From Candidatus Omnitrophota bacterium (lineage in GTDB: Bacteria; Omnitrophota; Gorgyraeia; Zapsychrales; Fredricksoniimonadaceae): DNA of 64,000 nt. Positions within the stretch are counted from its first letter, which is position 1, and each line of letters opens with the position of its first letter. The translations under genes were made by a program, and so were the position numbers. The stretch lies in the NCBI GenBank assembly GCA_015232565.1, contig JADFZK010000011.1:358-64357 (forward strand), given 5' to 3'. The notes beneath the pieces are model-generated. The model had not been told where the DNA came from and made no database searches. It saw only the letters and a list, made by a program, of their open reading frames with translations. Shown here one piece after another: positions 456 through 39,283 of this stretch.

Positions 456-3436
<2,981 letters not shown>

Positions 3437-3464: not shown

Positions 3465-6400
3465 TTAAGCCTGTTCGGGGCCAGAAGATCTCTGGTAATA
3501 ACTCTGAAGCGATTCGACCGTGAAGCCTTCTTTTAAGCTGGCCTCAATGCCGTGTATTGCCGCCGCGGCGCCCTGGATGGTGGTAATGCAGGGGATATTG
3601 CGTAAAATAGCCGCCGCGCGGATCTTGCGCATATCGAACTGGCTTTTCTTGCCTGACGGCGTATTGATAACAAGATTTATCTCATCTTTCTGGATGAGTG
3701 TCAATATGTTGTTGTGGCCCTCGCCAGTCTTGTCTACCAGCGTGACCATGACGCCGCTGGTCCTTAAGACCTTGGCCGTGCCTTTGGTGGCGAACAACTT
3801 GAACCCCAGGTCGTGCAGGCGCTTGGCCATAAAAGCCACCGAACGCTTGTCGTTCTCGTTAACACTGATGAAAACGCCGCCCTTTTTGGGCAAACCCTGA
3901 TTGGCCGCCATCTGACTTTTGGCATACGCCGCGCCAAAAGTAGGCGCCATGCCCATAACCTCGCCGGTGGACTTCATTTCCGGTCCCAGGATGATGTCCA
4001 CGCCCGAAAAGCGCGAGAACGGCAGAACGCATTCCTTGACCGCCACCATGCCCAGGCGGTCGATATCCGGCAACTTAAAGCCCGACAGTTTCTCGCCGGC
4101 CATTATGCGCGCGGCCATCTTGGCCAGCGGCACGCCGATAGCCTTCGACACAAAAGGCACCGTGCGCGACGCCCGCGGATTAACTTCCAGAATAAAGACC
4201 TTCTCGCCTTTTACCGCGAACTGGATATTAAGCAGGCCGATGACTTTCAACGCCAGCGCAATACGGCGAGTGTGCTCTTTTATTTCCGCCAAAATCTCTT
4301 CGCTTAAGGTATGCGGCGGCAAAACACAGGCCGAATCACCCGAATGGATGCCCGCATTCTCAATATGCTCCATGATACCCGCCACGTAAACCTGCTCGCC
4401 GTCACAGACCGCGTCAACGTCGACTTCCATGGCGTCTTCGATGAACTTGTCGATCAAAATAGGATGGCCGCGCGAAACATCCGTGATCTCGTCGATAAAA
4501 GACATCAGGGACTCTTCGTCGTACACAATGCGCATCGCCCGGCCGCCCAGCACATAAGACGGGCGCACCAGGACCGGATACCCCACCCGCAAAGCCGCGG
4601 CAGCGGTTTCTTCCACAGTAGTAGCCGTGGCATTATTAGGCTGGCTGATCTTCAGCTCATCCATTAAAGCGGCGAATTTCTCGCGGTTTTCAGCGGTATC
4701 AATAGAGTCCACACTGGTGCCGATAATTGGCGCACCGGCCTGTTTCAGGCGGCGGGCCAGGTTCAGCGGAGTCTGCCCGCCAAACTGCACAATAACGCCG
4801 TCCGGCTTCTCGACATCCATAATATTCATTACATCTTCGAAAGTAAGCGGCTCGAAATAAAGGCGGTCGGAAGTATCGTAATCCGTAGACACGGTTTCCG
4901 GATTGGAATTAACCATGATGGTCTCGAAGCCCCGCTCCTTGAGCGCGAAAGCCGCGTGGCAGCAGCAATAATCAAATTCAATGCCCTGGCCGATACGGTT
5001 CGGGCCGCCGCCCAGGATCATGATCTTCCGGCGGGTAGTGCCTTTGGCCTGGGCTTTAGTAAGCTTTTCATTCTGCAGGATGGCCTCATCCTCGGTCTCG
5101 TAGGTAGAATAAAAATAAGGCGTATACGCTTCAAATTCCGCCGCGCAGGTATCCACCACTTTAAACGTGGCCACAATACCCTTTTGTTTGCGCAGGGTGC
5201 GCACCGCGCTCTCGGACATATCCATGATCTCGGCCAGCTGGGGATCGGAAAAACCCCACTCTTTGGCCTGACGCAAGGTTTTATCCGACAAGGTTTTGGC
5301 CGCGGCGAACTCGGCGATCATCTCGTTCTCAAAATCAAGCAACTGTTTCATCTGGGCGATGAACCAGATATCCATGCGCGTATGCTCGACCACCTGGTCT
5401 ACAGTCATGCCGCTCTGCAGGGCATACTTGATGTAAAAGATCCGCGACGCGTTCGGTTCACGCAAGCGCTGTAGCAGCTTGGCTTCCTCGATATTGCGAT
5501 AATCGGTCTTGTTGTCAAAACCGATATGATGTATTTCCAGCCCCCGCAAACCCTTTTGCAAAGACTCCTTGAAAGTCCGGCCGATGGCCATGGTCTCGCC
5601 GACCGACTTCATTTGAATGCCCAGCACATCCTGGGCTTCGGGGAATTTCTCGAAAGTAAAGCGCGGGATCTTGGTAACACAATAATCTATGGCCGGCTCG
5701 AACGAAGCCGGGGTTTCGCGGGTAATATCGTTCTGGATCTCGTCGAGCGAATAGCCCACCGCCAGCTTGGCCGCAAACTTGGCGATCGGAAAGCCCGTCG
5801 CCTTGGACGCCAGCGCGGAAGAGCGCGAAACGCGCGGGTTCATTTCAATTACCACCATCCGGCCGGTCTTGGGATGCACCGCGAACTGGATATTGGAACC
5901 GCCGGTTTCAACCCCGATCTCGCGGATAAGCGCCAGCGACTGGTCGCGCATCTGCTGGTATTCGCGGTCGGTCAGGGTTTGCGCCGGCGCCACGGTAATG
6001 GAATCACCGGTATGCACGCCCATGGGGTCGATGTTCTCGATAGCGCAAACAATGACCACATTGTCCTTGTTATCGCGCATTACCTCCAGCTCAAATTCTT
6101 TCCAGCCCTCGATGGATTCTTCAATAAGGATTTCCGAGATCATACTGCTGTCAATACCGCGCTGGGCCTTGACGTCGAAATCCTCGCGGGAATAAACAAT
6201 GGAACCGCCCGTGCCGCCCAACGTAAAGCTGGAGCGGATAATACACGGGAACCCGATCTCTTTAACGACCTCGCGGGCTTCGTCCAGAGTATAAGCAAAA
6301 GAACTGCGCGGCAAGTCCAGGCCGATGCTCTGGCAAGCCTGCTTGAACTGTTTGCGGTCCTCGGCCTTTTTAATGACCTCGTACCTGGCACCCAGCATTT

Positions 6401-32277: not shown

Positions 32278-33975
32278 ATGGCCAATTTTATCTGCAAAAT
32301 AGAAAGATCCCTCGCCAAGCCAGCCTTGGCCGTACTTATCCTGGTCCTGCTGGGCGTGCTGGTCTACGCCAACTGCCTGCCCAATGAAATGTTCTGGGAC
32401 GATGACGATTTTATCCTCAAGAACATTTATATCCAGGACTGGAAATACTGGCCGCATTTTTTTACCGATAATGTTATCGCCGGCAACCACCTGAACAGCA
32501 ATTACTGGCGGCCGTTACTGCAGGCCGTCTTTGCCGTGGAATGGCATTTATGGAGCGACTGGGCTCCGGGCTGGCATCTGGTTAGCGCCGCCGGCCATAT
32601 CCTGGCGGGAACCGCCCTCTACAAATGCCTGGGCGCCCTGCTGAAAGACCGTCTCCCGGCCTTCCTGTGCGCGGCGGTGTTCATCGTGCACCCGGTCCAG
32701 ACCGAGGCCACGGCCTATCCCAACAGCCTGGGCGACGCGCTGGCGGCAATCTTTGTGTTCTGGGGCATCTATGCCTGGATCAAAACCCGCCGCACCGGCG
32801 CACGCGGCTGGTGGTGGGTTGCCTGGCTAATGTACCCACTGGCACTGCTGTCCAAAGAAACCGGCATCCTGTTGGCCGGCTACCTGGCCTTAACCGAATT
32901 TTTCATTCTGCAGAAAAGCGGCACCTTTTGGCAAAAGTCCTGGCGCACGCTTAGGAACCTGTGGCCTTTTATCGGCACCGCCATTGGCTACCTGGCCCTG
33001 CGGGCCACCGTATTAAACTTTGCCAATTCTTTCAACTTCTACAAAGAGCCCACCGCTTTCACCTCGCACCTGGAACTGCGCATCGTTTCTTTCCTGCAAA
33101 CCCTGGCGGCCTACACGGGGCTATTGTTCATTCCCTACGACCTGCGCGTGGAACGGGTTATCCAGCCCTCGCCCAACCTTTTTACTCCGGACGTTTTCTT
33201 TGGCGGAGCGGTTTTCCTGCTCCTGACGTTCACAATTATTTATTACTGGAAACGTAAGCCGCTGGTTACGTTCGGGGCCCTATGGTTCCTGGTGGGCATA
33301 CTGCCGACTTCCAACCTTATTGTCATCATCAATGCCGTATTATACGAACACTTCCTTTATTCCGCGCTCGTCGGTATCTTTCTGGCCATTTTCTGGAGCG
33401 GCCTGGCATGGGCCAATACCAAGACCAGAAAAAGACTGTTCCTGGGGTTAGCGTTGGTTTTTATCGCCGGGCTGGCCGGCCGCAGCCTCTGGCGCACTTT
33501 CGACTGGCGCACGGCAGTGGGTTTTTATGAAAAGCTGATCGTCACCGCGCCGCACAGTTACCGGGTGGTCAACAATCTGGGCATGGAATACGCCCAGAAA
33601 GGCCGCAATCCCGAGGCCGAAGCCACCTACCGCAAAGCCATTGTCCTGGACCCCACCAACGCGGTGGCGTACCATAATCTGGGTAATTTGTGCCGGGACA
33701 CCGGCCGCAAGGCGGAAGCCGCGCAATTCTTCGAGAAAGCCATTACCGCGCAAAGTAATTTTATCTTTTCCTACCAGGCCCTGATCCAGATCTATCTGGA
33801 TAACCAGGACTACGCCAATGCCCGCCGGGTGCTGGAACAATATTTCCAATATTCCGACGACCGCATAAATATCCTCAACCTGCTGAAAAACATCGCCCAA
33901 AAGCAGAACGACCCCGCCGCCATCCAGCGCTATTCAGAAGTATTATCCAAACTACAAACGGTCCGCCCAAAATAA
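32278..33975 (+). CDS. TMTC/PMT_2-like GT-C membrane glycosyltransferase with C-terminal TPR repeats
   Basis: 565 aa. N-terminal multi-TM region with an acidic loop (NEMFWDDDDFI), C-terminal TPRs (AVAYHNLGNLCRDTGRKAEA...). Confidence 0.65.
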   Translation: MANFICKIERSLAKPALAVLILVLLGVLVYANCLPNEMFWDDDDFILKNIYIQDWKYWPHFFTDNVIAGNHLNSNYWRPLLQAVFAVEWHLWSDWAPGWHLVSAAGHILAGTALYKCLGALLKDRLPAFLCAAVFIVHPVQTEATAYPNSLGDALAAIFVFWGIYAWIKTRRTGARGWWWVAWLMYPLALLSKETGILLAGYLALTEFFILQKSGTFWQKSWRTLRNLWPFIGTAIGYLALRATVLNFANSFNFYKEPTAFTSHLELRIVSFLQTLAAYTGLLFIPYDLRVERVIQPSPNLFTPDVFFGGAVFLLLTFTIIYYWKRKPLVTFGALWFLVGILPTSNLIVIINAVLYEHFLYSALVGIFLAIFWSGLAWANTKTRKRLFLGLALVFIAGLAGRSLWRTFDWRTAVGFYEKLIVTAPHSYRVVNNLGMEYAQKGRNPEAEATYRKAIVLDPTNAVAYHNLGNLCRDTGRKAEAAQFFEKAITAQSNFIFSYQALIQIYLDNQDYANARRVLEQYFQYSDDRINILNLLKNIAQKQNDPAAIQRYSEVLSKLQTVRPK

Positions 33976-33979
33976 AAGA

Positions 33980-34000
33980 CCGGCTTAACGCCGGCCTTTT
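33980..34000. terminator. Putative bidirectional intrinsic terminator: ccggc-ttaac-gccgg hairpin with T-runs on both strands
   Basis: Perfect 5-bp stem with a 5-nt loop. ttttag follows on the plus strand; minus-strand U-rich uuuuauuuu lies on the other side. Confidence 0.4.
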
Positions 34001-34023
34001 AGAATTTACTGCATGTAATTCTT

Positions 34024-34161
34024 TTACGGCAAGCCGACCGGCTGGGCATTGTTGCAATTCAGGGACCACACACTGCCTGTCATCTGCATCATATTGATGA
34101 CCACCGGAGCAAAGCAGTCCACGCCGCGGGTCTTGATGCGCTGGATCTTAAACGTGTTCAT
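34024..34161 (-). CDS. 45-aa ORF that duplicates the C-terminal 40 residues of the giant protein (MNTFKIQRIKTRGVDCFAPVVINMMQMTGSVWSLNCNNAQPVGLP). Its ATG overlaps the yhcG-like stop (ATGA).
   Basis: Derived by reverse-complementing 34024-34161; not in the ORF track (<60 aa). It lies within direct-repeat copy A. Confidence 0.35.
   Translation of the reverse strand: MNTFKIQRIKTRGVDCFAPVVINMMQMTGSVWSLNCNNAQPVGLP
34026..34148. repeat. Direct-repeat copy A (123 bp, ~92% identical to 35335..35457)
   Basis: Direct alignment: acggcaagccgaccggctgggcattg...gcgctggatct. Confidence 0.9.
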
Positions 34162-35258
34162 CCCTGCGCCTCAAAGAATCTCTTCTGCTCTTGCTCAATC
34201 TGCGCCATCAAAACTTTCTCATTTGGTAACTGGAGCCTATACTTCGACGCAAATATCTTGTTGTCGAGCCCGCCCAGGGCGTATTCTGCAACGGTCTTTC
34301 TCTTATCCGCACACAAAACTATCCCCACCGGAGGATTCTCACCCGGCAGCATTTCTTTAGCTTTCAAATAATTCAAATACAAATTCATCTGCCCTGCATC
34401 AGCATGGGTGAACTCTCCAAGCTTCAAGTCGATTCCGACGAGGCATCGTAAAACACGATGGTACAAAAGCAAGTCCAAGCGATAATGCGCCCCTTCCAGT
34501 GTTATCCTTTTCTGACGGGCAACGAAGGTGAAACCAGCCCCCATCTCCAGCAAGAAATGTTCCAAATGCCTGATCAACCCATCCTCCAGATCGCTCTCGG
34601 AATATTCATCCCGCAGCCCCAGAAATTCAAGAACATACGGGTCTTTAACTTCATCCTCCGGCTTCAAAACAATTGGAGCCTTATGTGCCTTGCTGATAAC
34701 CGCTGCTTTTTTCTTTGATAACGCCGTCCGCTCATAAAGCATGGATTGCAGCTGGCGATTCAACTGCCGAACCGACCAATTACCCCGTGCGCACTCCACT
34801 TCGTAGAATGTTCTTTTATGTTCTTCATCTATCCGCATCAGCAAACAATAATGTGACCACGATAGCCCCAAAGCCCCGGACAGTGTCTGGGGTTTCTCGA
34901 CACCAAATTTCCCAGACGCTGTCTGGGAAATTACTGAACGCCGATAAAGCATGAAGAACCGTCTCATCAAACGCAGATTCTCCGACGAAAACCCTTTACC
35001 AAAACGTTTGGTCAGATCCTGGGCCAGTTTCAACAGCACCTCATCGCCATACTCTGCCCGCAGTGCACCCCCCTGCTCATGCTGAACGATACTGCGCCCA
35101 ATGGACCAATATGTGACCACTAAAGCCACATTCACCTGACGAACAGCGACTCTTCGTCCTTGCTCAATAAGCGAAGACAGCTCATTAACGAGACCAGAAT
35201 AACTGCGGGACTTTAATATAATTTTGGGCATGGCTTTATTATATCCACCACGTTTCAA
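34158..35258 (-). CDS. YhcG-family PDDEXK nuclease-domain protein (DUF1016-like)
   Basis: 366 aa. N-terminal DUF1016-like helical region, C-terminal PD-(D/E)XK-like ...LDLLLYH...VGIDLKLGEF. GC ~42%, below the core genes. Confidence 0.7.
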   Translation of the reverse strand: MKRGGYNKAMPKIILKSRSYSGLVNELSSLIEQGRRVAVRQVNVALVVTYWSIGRSIVQHEQGGALRAEYGDEVLLKLAQDLTKRFGKGFSSENLRLMRRFFMLYRRSVISQTASGKFGVEKPQTLSGALGLSWSHYCLLMRIDEEHKRTFYEVECARGNWSVRQLNRQLQSMLYERTALSKKKAAVISKAHKAPIVLKPEDEVKDPYVLEFLGLRDEYSESDLEDGLIRHLEHFLLEMGAGFTFVARQKRITLEGAHYRLDLLLYHRVLRCLVGIDLKLGEFTHADAGQMNLYLNYLKAKEMLPGENPPVGIVLCADKRKTVAEYALGGLDNKIFASKYRLQLPNEKVLMAQIEQEQKRFFEAQG

Positions 35259-35332
35259 CAGAACGGAAGATTTACCTGAAGTTCAGCAAACCCAGCGACT
35301 TTGAAATAGCATCCGGAGATGCAAACTCAACA

Positions 35333-38300
35333 TCACGGCAAGCCGACCGGCCGGGCATTGTTACTATTTAGGGACCAGACACTGCCCGTCATCTGCATCA
35401 TATTGATGACCACCGGAGCAAAGCCGTCCACGCCGCGGGTCTTGATGCGCTGGATCTCGGCAGGATCAATGTTGACCTTAACCCCGTTTCCGGTGCGTTC
35501 CACGGTCATATTGAGCATGGCGGAATCGAAGTCGATACCACCCACCTCACTGTTCGCAGAATAATCAATTCCTAACGCTTTAAGATATCTAGGAATATCA
35601 TCGCCTGGTTTATTATGTTCTTTATTCCGGTCTTCTCGACTAACGGGAAAGGAAGATGCATGTAAGCGTGTATTATTAGGATCAGTACCATTTCCTCCCA
35701 TAATGCTGCGCAACTCAACTTTCTCTTTCACAGTCAACGCCGCTCCCGCATGCGCCATACTATCCAAAGGCTCAATCAACCATACCTCCACCTCACCACT
35801 GGTCACATTCCCAACCACCGACTCAAGAAGATTAACCGTTTGCCCTTCTTTTTGAATAGTGCGCCCGGCCAGCCCGTTATAAAAATCCCGGGTCCAACTA
35901 TCGGAAGGCCTAAAACGCGGCAACTGATGAATAACACGAAGACCCAGCTCCTTCAATCTGGCCTTTACCTTCTCTTGAAGTTCGTCGATATTGGGTAAAG
36001 CCAAAGAATCCGGACGAAACATAATACTAGCCACTTTATTAAGCCCAGCCCCAGCCACCAGGGCCGGTGCGGCTGACTGCAATTCATCATTAACTTTCTT
36101 GGCCAATGCTTGCGCTATTACCATCTTGGCCACTGCCAAAGGAAGAAAAAAGTCCTTATCTGTTAAAGTTGAATCCAATTTTTTTGCTTTTTCGGCATCC
36201 TGTTCGCTCAAACTTAATTCCTGCGCTATGTTTTCCGGAGAAACATCAAATCCATTTTTCATGGCGCTCGTCAACCAATTATTTACGATTTGATAATCGT
36301 AAACGCCAGGCGTTCCATTATAAATATTCCACATTGATACACGAAGTTTGATTGCCAGCGCACGATAAACATCATTTGATTCAATGTCGAGTAATATACT
36401 GCTAGGAAGCAAAGCCAGGGCCCATTCAAAACCAGGGATCCCGGCCAGTGCCAGGCGAATCGCCGTAGAAGAAGCACCGCCCAGATTACGATCCTGATTC
36501 AACATAATCCGACCGCTTTTAATAAGATCGTCAACATCGAGCGTTTCTCCATGAGTCTTCTCGCCATCAAACGAACTGCGTTCATTAAAAAGACCTATCA
36601 CCTGGGTTGTTTCTGTCACTAGGGCGGTTTTTAACACCTCTGTCTGCGCCGCAATAATATCCAGCCCAAAACCTTCACTTAAAAGACGCCCGATAAAATC
36701 TGCTTCCCAACCGGTTTCCGGCATTTCTTCCACCCCGCTACTGATCTTCACTAAACGTTCAACGCGTTCTAAAACATCCTCTAACAATTTGGGAATTGTA
36801 TCCCGCACAACTTTGCCATCAATCTCTTCAGGAAGCCTTAATCCGCTTATTGGATCCCTTTTCTTTCCCGGAGCCTTACCGTGCATATGATCAGTACCAA
36901 CAAGGTAATAAATAATTAATTCCTTAAGCTTCTCCGGATTCGTTAATGCCAGCCTAACCAGGAATTCAACAACTTGCGTTTCTCCATCGACAGTTCCAAT
37001 ATGCTCCAGCGGCATCGAAATGAACGGCTTCATCCCAGGTTTTTTAACGAAACGCGATATCATTTTCTTGCGATGAACCTCAGTAAACAAAGTTAAAATC
37101 TTGCGAAAATCGGCCCCTTGCAGACGCATTATACAATTTGCGGTCTTTGTTCTAACAAAACCTCTCCTTATCGCATCATCCTGACCAAAATGATACGGAT
37201 CGGCCGCCAACGGATAAAACACAAGTGCATGCTCATTGATTCTGTCATCCATCACCGCCATCCCAATACCTGCCGTGGAACGTAAAATCCTCCTTTCTTC
37301 GTCATCCAAAATAAACTTAATTTTCATTTTTGTTTCTGGTGTTAATCCCGGACGCTCAAGCAACTTCCAGTTAAGTTCTTGCAACAACTCGTTTTCCATA
37401 ACCAGAACATCACTTACGGTCTTATTTTCGCGAATTTCATCAGCGTACTCTTTGCGCGCCCATGAAAACGCGGCCAATTGTTTGCCCAGCCAATCGTCCT
37501 GAGTAACTGCAAAGATCACCGCACGGGTCAACATTCCAAAGGCATTCTTTCTATCATGCACTCGTTTCAAAAACGCTTTCTCTAAAACCAGGCGTACTCC
37601 ATCGTAATAAACCCCAAAAGTTTCTTTCTTTCCATTGTCAACCACCATAACCGGCTTGCCTGTTTGACCCAACACATGCCAGGCCAAAGAAATGCTCGAC
37701 TCGTATTCGTACTCGCTTTCAATCGGAACCATTTCATTATACTTAACCGTAGATAAAGCAACGGGGCTATCAAAACCGGCATTGGAGAAACGAGCATCAT
37801 TAATCAGTTCGTCAATCAAAATGGTTCTTAATGCCTTCCCATCCACATCAACTGGAGAATTGATCTTAACCTCTCGCCCGTTGAATTCCAAAAAAACCGA
37901 AGTTTTGTCCTTAAACTTAATTCTGATCCTGTTATTCCCCATAACTTCAAAAGTGTCTCCTTCAGCAATCAGATCATTAGCATCCAGAACCAGCTCGTTT
38001 TTCCGACCCAATAAATTAGCCACAGCAAATGCCACACTTGGCAGTGATTGTGACGTTAAAATCCCTGCCGGGAAATCAGTGGGCAACATTACAATACGAG
38101 TGAAAACTTTATTCGGTGTTGCCAATGCCACCGTTGCTTTTATTTGCTGTCCATTATTTGTAGCGCTCTCACTGAAATCTTTCGATGCCGCGGACTGAGG
38201 CCTGGCCTCCAGACGCTGCGCCAAATCAACATAACTTTCTCCACCGGAAAAATACTTACGCGGAATTATTTCGCCTGTTACCGGGTCAGCGTCTTCATGA

Positions 38301-39283
38301 ATCAAATTAAAAGCCCCCTTGCTGAATTGCTTCAAGTATTCCTTATAAATACGCTTGCGAGCATAAGGATCATTGGAATTCACTCCGGCCGTTTTCTTCT
38401 GGTTTGCGTACACCTGGGACAACAAGCTGTCTTTGAGCGCTTTTTTGTACCAAGTCGCCAGCACCATAGCGCCGTATACCTGGCGCAATTGGGCAAAAGC
38501 TTCTCCAGTGTTAACTTCTTTTTCAATCGCCGGGAGCATTACTTCGCGCATTACCTTCAACTCCATCTCCTGCATGGCATCCGAAGGCGCCGCCTGATCC
38601 TCGGCCGCACCCTGCGCCTTACTGGCCGCCAGCCCAAAATAGTCCCGCGCCAGCATTACTTTCATGGAAAGCTCACCCAGTAAGACCGTATTGTTATTCT
38701 CGTAAACCACGGCCTTGTTTGGCACTATCCAAACCTTGCTTAGGGTGTCCAGCGGAACCTCGGTAGTACCCAGCTGTTCTTTGGCCGCGGCATATACCCG
38801 GCTCCAGAAAGCTTTTCCGGTATCCGAATCCGGATGCAAAATGCTTGAAGCATAACGCTTTAGCGCACTATCCTGCGCCAACATAACGCGGCCCATCTCG
38901 GTTAACCCGAGCTCATTGGGAATAATGCGATCGTTCTCGTAAGGGGAAAGGTTAACCCACAACTCTTTTTCGGGTATCGTTACTGCGGCCAGAAAATATT
39001 TCGCAAGTTTCTCTGTTTCTTTCTTTAACGCTTCACCGCTTAACTCGGTGGAACCGTTATCTACCACAAAATCAAACACCAAGGGCTCATCAACACGCAC
39101 ATTTAGAGCGCGCAGATGTACCGGAAAATATCCAGCATTCGCGGAAACGGTAGCAACAGCCGGCAAGTTAAAAGCCACCTGCGCCATTGCCGGCACCGGG
39201 AAAACCGAATTAACGCTAAAAACCAAAGCTAAAACTGCCGCCATCCGCTTTACAAAACCAGACTTCTTTGCGCAATTCAACAT
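35333..39283 (-). CDS. Giant secreted protein of unknown function (1316 aa, N-terminal signal peptide)
   Basis: MAAVLALVFSVNSVFPVPAMAQV signal-like N-terminus. No domain recognised by eye. ~45% GC versus ~58% for the core genes. SD GAGGA lies 6 nt upstream of the ATG. Confidence 0.7.
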   Translation of the reverse strand: MLNCAKKSGFVKRMAAVLALVFSVNSVFPVPAMAQVAFNLPAVATVSANAGYFPVHLRALNVRVDEPLVFDFVVDNGSTELSGEALKKETEKLAKYFLAAVTIPEKELWVNLSPYENDRIIPNELGLTEMGRVMLAQDSALKRYASSILHPDSDTGKAFWSRVYAAAKEQLGTTEVPLDTLSKVWIVPNKAVVYENNNTVLLGELSMKVMLARDYFGLAASKAQGAAEDQAAPSDAMQEMELKVMREVMLPAIEKEVNTGEAFAQLRQVYGAMVLATWYKKALKDSLLSQVYANQKKTAGVNSNDPYARKRIYKEYLKQFSKGAFNLIHEDADPVTGEIIPRKYFSGGESYVDLAQRLEARPQSAASKDFSESATNNGQQIKATVALATPNKVFTRIVMLPTDFPAGILTSQSLPSVAFAVANLLGRKNELVLDANDLIAEGDTFEVMGNNRIRIKFKDKTSVFLEFNGREVKINSPVDVDGKALRTILIDELINDARFSNAGFDSPVALSTVKYNEMVPIESEYEYESSISLAWHVLGQTGKPVMVVDNGKKETFGVYYDGVRLVLEKAFLKRVHDRKNAFGMLTRAVIFAVTQDDWLGKQLAAFSWARKEYADEIRENKTVSDVLVMENELLQELNWKLLERPGLTPETKMKIKFILDDEERRILRSTAGIGMAVMDDRINEHALVFYPLAADPYHFGQDDAIRRGFVRTKTANCIMRLQGADFRKILTLFTEVHRKKMISRFVKKPGMKPFISMPLEHIGTVDGETQVVEFLVRLALTNPEKLKELIIYYLVGTDHMHGKAPGKKRDPISGLRLPEEIDGKVVRDTIPKLLEDVLERVERLVKISSGVEEMPETGWEADFIGRLLSEGFGLDIIAAQTEVLKTALVTETTQVIGLFNERSSFDGEKTHGETLDVDDLIKSGRIMLNQDRNLGGASSTAIRLALAGIPGFEWALALLPSSILLDIESNDVYRALAIKLRVSMWNIYNGTPGVYDYQIVNNWLTSAMKNGFDVSPENIAQELSLSEQDAEKAKKLDSTLTDKDFFLPLAVAKMVIAQALAKKVNDELQSAAPALVAGAGLNKVASIMFRPDSLALPNIDELQEKVKARLKELGLRVIHQLPRFRPSDSWTRDFYNGLAGRTIQKEGQTVNLLESVVGNVTSGEVEVWLIEPLDSMAHAGAALTVKEKVELRSIMGGNGTDPNNTRLHASSFPVSREDRNKEHNKPGDDIPRYLKALGIDYSANSEVGGIDFDSAMLNMTVERTGNGVKVNIDPAEIQRIKTRGVDGFAPVVINMMQMTGSVWSLNSNNARPVGLP
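35335..35457. repeat. Direct-repeat copy B (123 bp) covering the last 40 codons and stop of the giant gene
   Basis: Aligned to 34026..34148; the copies differ by ~10 substitutions. Confidence 0.9.

Follow-up and report, generated by a model that had tools for sequence, protein, structure and literature searches.

A yhcG-family nuclease gene inserted at the 3′ end of a very large Omnitrophota gene, between two diverged copies of that gene's conserved tail

We analyzed a 64,000-nt stretch of DNA (the window) from a Candidatus Omnitrophica MAG, in which a gene encoding a 1316-aa protein, hereafter the giant gene, is followed by a yhcG-family gene and then by a second copy of the giant gene's own 3′ end. 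The features of the locus are as follows, in window coordinates:

32278–33975, plus strand: convergent membrane/TPR gene, 565 aa; synteny anchor, 51% identical to the gene directly after the giant-gene ortholog in one syntenic relative (L002)
33978–33996, no strand assigned: terminator hairpin, GC-rich, flanked by an A-run and a T-run on opposite sides; fold −25.3 kcal/mol, z = −3.35
34024–34148, minus strand: repeat copy A, tail and TAA stop, beside the terminator in the ancestral position
34149–34161, minus strand: junction or filler sequence linking the clipped end of yhcG to copy A, giving an ATG and codons MNTF(K)
34158–35231, minus strand: yhcG/DUF1016 gene for a predicted PD-(D/E)XK nuclease, 357 aa (Pfam, PADLOC, alignment)
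34871–34895, no strand assigned: palindrome 2, an imperfect second copy inside yhcG, 2 mismatches in 11 bp
34906–34932, no strand assigned: palindrome 1, perfect, 12 bp with a 3-nt loop, inside yhcG, encoding ISQTASGKF
35232–35332, minus strand: spacer, 101 nt, from the giant gene stop to the yhcG start
35333–35457, minus strand: repeat copy B, the last 40 codons (IQRIK...PVGLP) and TGA stop of the giant gene
35333–39283, minus strand: giant gene, 1316 aa, GenBank HQL20_03875

A preliminary description of the sequence had claimed 123-bp direct repeats at 34026–34148 and 35335–35457 with ~92% identity. A repeat search found the repeats at these coordinates, with a spacing of 1309, and revised the identity to 94% over 123 nt. 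The two stop codons (TGA for copy B, TAA for copy A) line up as well, which lengthens the repeat to 125 nt (34024–34148 and 35333–35457), with 117/125 positions identical in a base-by-base comparison that detected no similarity past either end. The two copies match each other by blastn with E = 3e-51, and blastn found no third copy within the window. Between the repeats is an 1184-bp (1.18-kb) segment that holds only the 101-nt spacer and an intact yhcG/DUF1016 nuclease gene. The open reading frames agree with the rest of the described anatomy: copy B is the last 40 codons and stop of the 1316-aa gene (35333–39283, minus strand), and copy A lies inside a minus-strand 45-codon ORF (34024–34161) whose ATG overlaps the stop of the program-listed yhcG ORF (34158–35258) as ATGA. 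The GenBank annotation of the 45-codon ORF is hypothetical protein HQL20_03865.

Copy B runs on from the giant gene body, keeps the family motif GVDGFAPVVIN, and is the functional tail of the giant gene. The copy A peptide is identical to that of copy B at 37/40 residues; in the G[FL]xPV motif, where the Gly is near-invariant, copy A has Cys. This decay argues against the earlier suggestion that both copies are under selection, and copy A is best read as a displaced, non-functional tail remnant. The comparison of synonymous and nonsynonymous change that had been called for leans synonymous: the copies differ by four synonymous, three nonsynonymous and one stop-to-stop change (pS 0.147, pN 0.032; binomial p = 0.051), and the synonymous fraction is 0.57 compared with about 0.37 expected. 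Seven of the eight differences fall within the 55 nt nearest the stop. GC3 is about 0.8 in both tails, a host-like value, and about 0.42 in the giant gene body. We asked whether GC3 could mark a recombination tract; although the gene body is atypical, GC3 does not change abruptly at the edge of the repeat, and it was therefore left out as evidence.

The giant protein, read here as a surface protein, has no match in Pfam or NCBIfam. It consists of a signal-peptide-like N-terminus, an N-domain of ~350 aa, a variable middle and a conserved C-terminal tail; its closest ortholog is 44% identical. The N-domain is common to >2270 protein matches in a similarity search, and the family proteins carry GGIDL in the last 100 aa in 94/120 cases and a GFxPVII motif in the last 60 in 87/120. 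Two elements characterize the family, the ~350-aa N-domain preceded by a signal-like peptide and a GGID[LF]...G[FL]xPV[IV]IN module at the C-terminus, and the giant protein has both. As the preliminary description had supposed, the C-terminal peptide is a recurrent C-terminal domain: among 1.84 billion cluster representatives searched, 249 matched the tail, at the C-terminus in every one. The tail is a family-wide C-terminal domain in Omnitrophota. In the same search, the nearest tail of another protein was 66% identical, compared with 88% (94% in DNA) for copy A. The 64-kb window contains no second member of the family. As an observation in its own right, this is an unnamed and very large Omnitrophota family in which an unannotated N-domain and a C-terminal tail enclose diverse enzyme domains.

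One earlier proposal was that yhcG had been inserted where the giant gene ends, and we looked for the uninterrupted locus in related genomes. In three syntenic relatives (L002–L004), a terminator directly follows the giant gene and the convergent TPR-type gene comes next; there is a single tail, and yhcG is absent. Gene order is kept on both sides, with PPK-CHAD-Ppx-ROK-giant to one side and TPR-PG_binding-GAF/ANTAR to the other, and the genes flanking the locus are syntenic, housekeeping-type and non-mobile. The syntenic relatives indicate that yhcG and the second tail are a lineage-specific insertion. The giant-gene orthologs of these relatives are only 38% identical, which makes a nucleotide comparison with their tails impossible. 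The hairpin at 33978–33996 is a bidirectional intrinsic terminator for both convergent genes; it is missing from the output of a promoter/terminator consensus scan, and folding supports it. Copy A is 24 nt from this terminator, and the single tail in L002 is 30 nt from its own.

The yhcG protein matches PF17761 (DUF1016_N; 2.5e-43, 147.9 bits) and PF06250 (YhcG_C; 1.2e-57, 194.6 bits), with gathering cut-offs of about 32.5–32.8, and both domains place it in the YhcG/DUF1016 family (COG4804). It is also a full-length match to the PADLOC profile PDC-S02, a candidate defense system (E = 9.6e-138). The columns invariant across 10 aligned homologs include E238, D262, D277 and K279, and all family-invariant residues are retained. 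The protein is a predicted nuclease, since the residues of the E...D...(D/E)xK catalytic core of the family (Kosinski 2005, PMC1189080) are present; the YhcG nuclease domain is similar to Holliday-junction resolvases (PMC1189080). In the alignment, its C-terminus is 2–11 residues shorter than those of nine relatives, and the last three residues deviate. Homologs at 60–72% identity occur in Nitrospirota, Elusimicrobiota, Deltaproteobacteria and Actinobacteria, indicating that the gene moves widely. The gene had been called lower-GC; at 48% GC and a GC3 of 0.54 it is below most of its neighbors (GC3 about 0.65) but not below the giant gene itself (GC 46%, GC3 0.47).

The 101-nt spacer contains a perfect TATAAT 8 nt upstream of the yhcG ATG, which may be a promoter element for yhcG. 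The spacer shows no similarity to the regions upstream of other yhcG loci, and the spacer and junction sequences together match none of those loci, so no conserved cassette ends can be defined. Domain and inverted-repeat searches bear out the report that the insert has no transposase and no inverted terminal repeats, and we found no integrase, Rfam element or short target duplication at the insert. The sole match in an Rfam scan of 33500–35800 was a sub-threshold miRNA hit on the yhcG palindrome.

The preliminary description had also suggested looking for yhcG genes at other 3′ ends with similar duplications, and such cases exist. Three of 100 other yhcG loci (L019, L046 and L056) have the same layout at unrelated genes: the upstream gene is intact, yhcG has the same orientation and a 3′ fragment lies beyond it. 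The target is a UDP-glucose dehydrogenase gene in L019 and an N6 methylase gene in L046. For both, comparison of the upstream 3′ end with the downstream fragment gave a saturated pS of 0.76–0.82 and a pN of 0.13–0.15, indicating that the copies diverged as working genes in separate lineages; the repeat similarity in L019 also ends at the stop codon. By contrast, L056 has a pN/pS of 0.58 with differences even across codon positions, a pattern of decay. A further locus (L076) combines a tRNA 3′ end with a serine recombinase, an integrase-type island that regenerates the 3′ end of its target. Overall, flanking repeats occur at 3–4 of the 100 loci, a modest enrichment, and yhcG relatives lie in many unrelated contexts, such as type I R-M operons or beside gyrA. 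A tblastx search for more diverged flanking duplicates showed no enrichment (4/50 loci, compared with 3/39 and 3/37 controls), and none of 12 yhcG loci in a viral scan had bracketing repeats. A scan of a genome collection with a single yhcG protein returned only six loci, none from a close relative of the source genome. Identical yhcG proteins on many contigs (P0238, P0160) were considered as multiple insertion sites and rejected, as they represent one context repeated.

We also observed a covarying DNA palindrome conserved inside yhcG genes from E. coli K-12 yhcG to Omnitrophota, of which palindrome 1 is an instance. A 10-mer of the second palindrome, CAGTGTCTGG, is present in copy B (0/300 shuffles). 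A palindrome half-site was considered as the insertion target; however, neither copy A nor the repeats at L019, L046 and L056 contain the 10-mer, and we therefore treat its presence in copy B as a coincidence.

The locus is an ordinary recombination scar, not a new kind of mobile element. Our tentative preference, at a little under even confidence, is that yhcG, a horizontally acquired gene of the defense-island type that brings no mobility machinery, came with a donor tail through recombination that was anchored on homology but otherwise illegitimate, and that the resident tail (copy A) was displaced in the process. The donor would have been a related genome in which yhcG was already directly downstream of the orthologous giant gene, and the incoming fragment would have carried the donor gene 3′ end, its stop, the 101-nt spacer and yhcG, ending a few codons before the yhcG stop. 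The fragment could have entered in linear form, through a single homologous crossover within the giant gene plus an illegitimate join to the resident gene at codon −40 (homology-facilitated illegitimate recombination, HFIR), or as a circularized fragment, with a single crossover inside the 123-bp tail homology. Either route would yield the gene body, tail B, spacer, yhcG, resident tail A and old terminator, such that tail B would keep the giant protein whole and tail A would be a displaced remnant with its ORF retained by chance. That the similarity of the copies ends exactly at the stop codon follows if the tails are two alleles with different downstream DNA, whereas it would be a coincidence under random in-situ duplication; the clipped yhcG with its deviating last residues is expected for an illegitimate joint at the end of incoming DNA. 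Both features appear compatible with HFIR or single-crossover integration. We infer the donor arrangement and the recombination route, and the former is hypothetical because the nearest ortholog is 44% identical. Counting against the donor-tail reading, it requires that yhcG had been placed downstream of the gene beforehand by an event that it leaves unexplained, it neither predicts nor explains the difference in GC3 between the tails and the gene body, flanking repeats are only modestly enriched at yhcG loci, and the differences between the copies cluster near the stop.

There are precedents for such recombination. One-ended recombination and single-crossover integration with duplications of 109–950 bp have been shown experimentally (PMC3240628); there, as in our proposal, foreign DNA is integrated via one homologous segment without element-encoded machinery, and a duplication of that segment flanks the insert. 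In classical HFIR, insertion is usually coupled to deletion, with 3–10 bp of microhomology (PMC3240628). Similar recombination has been put forward to explain the orphan 3′ modules of T6SS and Rhs loci (Kirchberger et al. 2017, PMC5361080). As in T6SS effector, Rhs and CDI loci, the incoming module would be anchored on a conserved upstream region and the resident 3′ end pushed downstream as an orphan; unlike in those loci, what has been displaced is the same conserved tail rather than a variable toxin domain, neither an immunity gene nor an array is present, and the orphan is followed by a terminator. Integrase islands at tRNA and protein genes likewise have repeats that correspond to the target 3′ end and leave the gene intact, but here there is no tyrosine or serine recombinase in or beside the 1.3-kb unit and no conserved att-like core, and the yhcG ORF itself is clipped at the junction. 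The locus does not fit a transposon or insertion sequence (no transposase domain, no terminal inverted repeats, a repeat of 125 bp) or an integron cassette (no imperfect inverted-repeat attC site between yhcG and copy A, an ORF that abuts the repeat, no Rfam match).

A close rival of the donor-tail reading, although in our estimate an unlikely one, is in-situ insertion with long target duplication, in which a yhcG cassette (spacer and gene) was inserted and 125 bp of target duplicated in one event, after which the copies diverged by 6% and copy A decayed. Such insertion was described for restriction-modification units by the Kobayashi laboratory (Furuta et al. 2010, PMC2853133). Consistent with their operational criteria, the 1184-bp insert is <20 kb, the 123–125-bp repeat is >30 bp and inside their 46–423 bp range, mobility genes are absent and the cargo is a nuclease (PMC2853133). 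Their units are also short, nuclease-type defense units without transposase or integrase, the direct repeats are tens to hundreds of bp that are single copy in the uninterrupted locus, the site often overlaps a gene 3′ end, and the GC of the insert is atypical. This rival needs one event rather than two, and is further supported by the non-conservative change at the near-invariant Gly of copy A and by the decay-type pattern of L056. By contrast, the cargo here is a solitary DUF1016 nuclease with no methyltransferase, whereas their criteria ask for homologs of both R and M; the two copies differ by 6%, and their similarity ends exactly at the stop codon, a few-percent chance for random placement; the clipped yhcG 3′ end is left unexplained; the differences between the copies lean synonymous; and saturation at synonymous sites means that L019 and L046 cannot have arisen by duplication in situ. 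Judged from the sequences, seven coding differences cannot tell the donor-tail reading from in-situ duplication with decay of copy A. Free-standing homing endonuclease genes (intronless homing) are small nuclease genes beside conserved host genes, with a patchy phylogenetic distribution, and yhcG is like them in these respects; unlike theirs, its insertion is not recurrent at one site. To our knowledge, homing makes no target duplications. A nuclease-driven or homing-like insertion, as entertained in the preliminary description, or one otherwise self-promoted, would have YhcG or a structure in its gene make a break, target gene 3′ ends and regenerate the tail. The layout does recur at unrelated genes (L019, L046, L056), the nuclease domain resembles Holliday-junction resolvases (PMC1189080), yhcG genes bear a conserved internal palindrome, and the 10-mer of its second copy is in copy B. 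Nonetheless, we consider this mechanism highly improbable, given that flanking repeats occur at only about 3–4% of 100 loci, most homologs are in R-M operons or other contexts without repeats, the insert ends are not conserved, the yhcG 3′ end is clipped, the target sequences are unrelated and the 10-mer is missing from copy A and the other three loci's repeats. It is very improbable that YhcG/DUF1016 genes are self-promoting elements in which the resolvase-like nuclease acts on the own-gene palindrome (as a cruciform) or similar sites, with breaks and repair carrying the gene and the 3′ end of its upstream neighbor into new genomes; if true, this would account for the recurrent layout of intact gene 3′ end, yhcG and displaced 3′ fragment.

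The preliminary description had offered a second reading, that copy A is left over from a deleted paralogous giant gene; such a gene would have stood in tandem and lost its body by deletion or to replacement with yhcG. A tandem arrangement does occur in L001, where a further gene sharing the N-domain and tail comes after the ortholog; however, these adjacent tails are very different, the most syntenic relatives have no tandem paralog at this position, the window holds no other family member, and tails of different members are at most 66% identical compared with 88% (94% in DNA) for copy A, such that we regard this origin as very unlikely. Copy A might instead be functional, as a small protein translationally coupled to yhcG through the ATGA overlap or as a stored orphan tail for swapping the giant C-terminus as in Rhs/CDI modules. 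Its reading frame, stop and ATG are all kept, the differences lean synonymous and it is annotated as a CDS. We find a function highly doubtful: the Gly-to-Cys change of copy A hits a near-invariant residue of the motif, the tail that it encodes is the one already present in copy B and so offers no alternative function to swap in, there is no immunity-like partner, and with substitutions only over 123 nt an intact frame is the default expectation. A search of 5.8 billion proteins with the 45-aa ORF matched only itself, a weak negative from a single retrieved candidate that is uninformative on paralogs. Finally, the contig comes from a MAG and the tails are identical over stretches as long as about 60 nt, raising the prospect that two strain variants were joined in assembly. 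We judge such an artifact extremely unlikely: the repeats are diverged, neither collapsed nor identical, the same architecture occurs at other genes in independent assemblies, and the yhcG-tail A junction is unique, with no k-mer in common with the giant-gene-tail B junction, indicating that a graph mis-join cannot create it.

At this locus the analysis mostly tidies up the annotation: HQL20_03865, the 45-aa hypothetical protein, most plausibly represents a fragment of a gene that was displaced, nothing is missing from the giant gene, and yhcG is a defense-type gene acquired horizontally and recently. The locus adds a new case, a solitary DUF1016 nuclease from an uncultivated phylum, to defense genes with long direct repeats and no mobility genes. 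L019 and L046 indicate that such repeats can be two xenologous 3′ ends rather than an in-situ duplication, and so bear on the interpretation of "insertion with long target duplication". Two by-products, the yhcG palindrome and the very large Omnitrophota family, may outweigh the finding itself.

The repeat search, ORFs and domain matches agreed with the preliminary description, which had reported a yhcG-like gene between two direct repeats that carry the C-terminal coding segment of the giant gene. The repeats (34026-34148 and 35335-35457) are 123 nt long, 94% identical and spaced 1309 nt apart; the base-by-base match reaches 125 nt (34024-34148 and 35333-35457; 117/125 positions) because the stop codons, TAA in copy A and TGA in copy B, are in register. 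Similarity is cut off sharply at either end, and there is no third copy within the 64-kb window. The locus is arranged as follows.

Features of the locus in window coordinates
33978-33996: terminator hairpin (folding, -25.3 kcal/mol, z = -3.35)
34024-34161, minus strand: 45-codon ORF that contains copy A, its ATG overlapping the stop of the upstream gene (ATGA)
34158-35231, minus strand: yhcG, the sole gene between the repeats, encoding a complete YhcG/DUF1016 protein
Spacer, 101 nt: between the repeats, beside yhcG
35333-35457, minus strand: copy B, the last 40 codons and stop of the 1316-aa giant-gene ORF, 35333-39283(-)

In GenBank the ORF containing copy A is annotated as HQL20_03865, a hypothetical protein from a Candidatus Omnitrophica MAG. 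The yhcG product matches PF17761 (2.5e-43), PF06250 (1.2e-57) and the PADLOC candidate defence family PDC-S02 (9.6e-138). The gene had been described as lower in GC, which holds against its neighbours (GC3 0.54 vs ~0.65) but not against the giant gene (GC3 0.47). A perfect TATAAT lies 8 nt 5' of the yhcG ATG (35232-35250) with no Shine-Dalgarno sequence in between, which suggests that the cassette may carry its own promoter and produce a leaderless or near-leaderless mRNA.

The closest orthologs of the giant gene are 38-44% identical to it and are located on their own contigs. At three of these loci, from three samples (L002, L003 and L004), the genes run PPK-CHAD-Ppx-(501 aa)-ROK-giant gene, followed by a convergent TPR-type gene, PG_binding and GAF/ANTAR; the order in the window is identical on both flanks, at 46-73% identity. 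In L002 an intrinsic terminator lies 30 nt past the giant-gene stop, and the convergent gene ends beyond it; in the window the equivalent terminator lies 24 nt from copy A. An uninterrupted locus is thus present in relatives, and the window exceeds the conserved arrangement by 1.3 kb, made up of the second tail, the spacer and yhcG. This excess bears out the proposed insertion at the 3' end of the gene. Copy A had alternatively been read as the leftover of a deleted paralog; the window contains no second member of the giant-gene family and the syntenic relatives contain no tandem paralog at this place, which speaks against a paralog remnant, and we give that reading little weight. Little weight also attaches to an assembly artefact.

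The suggestion that the repeated peptide is a recurrent C-terminal domain was upheld. Searched exhaustively with HMMER, the C-terminal 72 residues matched 249 cluster representatives at E<=1e-3, with the tail at the C-terminal end of long proteins among the matches listed; many of the short matches may be contig-end fragments. This placement argues that the repeat encodes the distal half of a C-terminal domain that is genuine and recurrent. The closest tail from another protein in that search was 66% identical to copy B, while copies A and B share 88% of their residues and 94% of their nucleotides, indicating that both arose recently within this lineage and do not descend from old paralog tails. 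They are separated by seven coding differences and the stop change, and 7/8 of these fall within the 55 nt nearest the stop. Nei-Gojobori counting gave 4.0 synonymous and 3.0 nonsynonymous differences (pS 0.147, pN 0.032), a borderline synonymous excess (binomial p = 0.051). In copy A a Cys replaces the near-invariant Gly of the family (the final G of GVDG in GVDGF), which places copy A outside the family's constraint. This does not support the idea that both copies are kept under selection, and we give little weight to copy A being a functional orphan tail.

The unit between the repeats encodes yhcG alone, without mobility genes, and its flanking genes are those that are syntenic in the relatives. 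We found neither terminal inverted repeats flanking the unit nor an Rfam element within it, and the spacer and 3' junction resembled nothing at 100 other yhcG loci. Homing-like or nuclease-driven insertion, the other part of the proposed insertion, is given little weight. The yhcG product retains all residues that do not vary in nine homologs; it ends 2-11 residues before them and its last three residues deviate, which puts the right-hand junction within the gene, at its very 3' end. Homologs 60-72% identical to it come from Nitrospirota, Elusimicrobiota, Deltaproteobacteria, Actinobacteria and others, and identical YhcG proteins are encoded within type I R-M operons and beside an R-M pair and gyrA. 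DUF1016 has been reported on integrative conjugative elements and beside phase-variable R-M genes (PMC4316617, PMC9881135). These distributions fit a widely transferred defence-island gene.

We surveyed 100 other yhcG loci (521 kb in total) for the same layout. In 4/100 loci yhcG lies between long direct repeats (140 nt or more); repeats of that length were found in 0/76 shifted control intervals. The surveyed loci also hold other repeats, which do not bracket yhcG, and the enrichment is real but modest, roughly five-fold.

Surveyed yhcG loci with bracketing direct repeats (positions within each locus)
L019: UDP-glucose dehydrogenase upstream; repeats of 208 and 68 nt; 2030-2413 and 3829-4147
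L046: N6 DNA methylase upstream; repeat of 270 nt; 1281-1550 and 2778-3047
L056: SNF2/NOV_C helicase upstream; repeat of 143 nt; 2795-2962 and 4504-4668
L076: tRNA 3' end, with an adjoining large serine recombinase; repeat of 209 nt; 2401-2609 and 4025-4233

L076 is an ordinary tRNA-targeting integrase island, a different class from the window case. The remaining three have the layout of the window, in which the upstream gene is intact and is followed by yhcG in the same orientation and then by a fragment of that gene's own 3' end; yhcG-like genes thus do lie at other 3' ends with similar flanking repeats, in 3/100 loci and at unrelated genes. In L019 and L046 the copies differ mostly at third codon positions, with synonymous sites nearly saturated and few nonsynonymous changes (pS 0.82 and pN 0.13 in L019; pS 0.76 and pN 0.15 in L046), indicating that they diverged inside working genes in different lineages. 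From this pattern the repeats at both loci are judged to be xenologous 3' ends, not in-situ duplications. Similarity in L019 also ends exactly at the stop codon. The L056 pair (pN/pS 0.58) looks like decay, to judge from its substitutions. In L019 a HicB-like antitoxin domain (3559-3800) separates yhcG from the displaced UDP-glucose dehydrogenase fragment and is fused in frame to the latter.

Two described routes yield the anatomy of the window without an element-encoded enzyme. Homology-facilitated illegitimate recombination attaches a linear fragment through a homologous crossover on one side and an illegitimate join on the other. When a circularised fragment integrates by a single crossover, the homologous segment is duplicated, with 109-950 bp obtained experimentally (PMC3240628). 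The first route has been put forward to explain how T6SS effector/Rhs 3' ends are displaced and left as orphans downstream (PMC5361080). The most likely reading, which we hold tentatively, is that a homology-anchored event brought in yhcG together with a donor tail. The incoming DNA would have consisted of the tail and stop of a donor allele, the spacer and a 3'-clipped yhcG. Such an event explains the repeat boundary at the stop codon, the clipped 3' end of yhcG, the ancestral place of copy A beside the terminator, the lean towards synonymous changes between the copies and the lack of conserved insert ends. L019 and L046 display its outcome directly.

The main rival, an in-situ insertion in which a long target duplication produced both tails, strikes us as less likely. 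It accords with the degenerate Gly-to-Cys change in copy A and needs one event instead of two, and a class of such insertions has been described in which R-M units without mobility genes are flanked by repeats of 46-423 bp, often over gene 3' ends (PMC2853133); however, it leaves both the stop-codon boundary and the clipped yhcG unexplained. The comparison of copies A and B amounts to seven differences with no close relative, too few to separate in-situ duplication from acquisition of a donor tail. The window feature resembles the long-repeat defence-gene insertions but lacks their literal R+M cargo, and resembles orphan-forming 3' displacement but lacks the toxin/immunity character of that class. 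It is best called a member of already known kinds of event.

Two palindromes lie inside the yhcG gene of the window.

Palindromes within yhcG in window coordinates
34906-34932, plus strand: palindrome 1, AATTTCCCAGAC-GCT-GTCTGGGAAATT
34871-34895: palindrome 2, a weaker second copy

Perfect palindromes of this kind are conserved in yhcG/DUF1016 genes, with a stem of 11-14 bp, a 3-nt loop and the consensus ATTnnnCAGAC-NNN-GTCTGnnnAAT. They lie in a variable linker ~250-330 nt into each yhcG ORF (L005-L102) and encode I-x-Q-T-x-S-x-K/E, often as 2-3 in-frame tandem copies; E. coli K-12 yhcG has three, at nt 315, 354 and 393, 39 nt apart. In 55/99 distinct yhcG genes a perfect stem of 10 bp or more, closed by a 3-nt loop, occurs ~270 nt into the ORF, and 76/99 have a stem with at most one mismatch in 11 bp, compared with 0/495 codon-shuffled genes and 5/257 flanking pieces. 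The stems vary widely in sequence while complementarity persists, with double-sided changes at 10/12 stem pairs (145 cells vs 36 in shuffles). There is no G-T bias among the stem mismatches, which points to a DNA rather than an RNA element. The YhcG nuclease domain is predicted to resemble Holliday-junction resolvases (PMC1189080); if so, a cruciform would be an obvious candidate substrate. We found no published description of the palindrome in Rfam or in the literature searched.

The giant gene belongs to an Omnitrophota family of >2000 proteins without a Pfam model (window 35333-39283; P0002-P0120), built from a signal-like N-terminus, a conserved ~350-aa N-domain, a highly variable, enzyme-bearing middle and a likewise conserved ~65-aa C-terminal module (GGID[LF]...GFxPVIIN). 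The 1316-aa protein itself has no Pfam or NCBIfam match. Its first ~350 residues are common to >2270 database proteins at 45-60% identity, the middles of which are very diverse and include NDK, UDPGP, NUDIX, methyltransferase and HEAT domains. Pairwise alignments revealed that the very C-terminal residues form a second common module, GGID[LF]...G[VF]xGFxPV[IV]IN; among the 120 best matches of the >2270, 94 have a GGIDL-like sequence within the last 100 residues and 87 a GFxPVII motif within the last 60. The composition of the giant gene is unusual (GC3 0.47 overall vs ~0.65 in nearly all neighbours). Its body has a GC3 of ~0.42, compared with 0.6-0.8 in the neighbours, the N-domain core and the tail, and host-like values are confined to codons ~151-300 and the last ~65 codons. 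In L002 the syntenic ortholog shows no such anomaly. Judging from this composition, the variable middle may have been swapped by recombination at the conserved ends. The closest ortholog (L001:1-12920) lies among very large family members arranged in tandem: upstream of it is a 3794-aa gene, which has a different C-terminus, and downstream a 1126-aa gene with Glyco_transf_5, which shares the N-domain and ends in a GGIDF tail.
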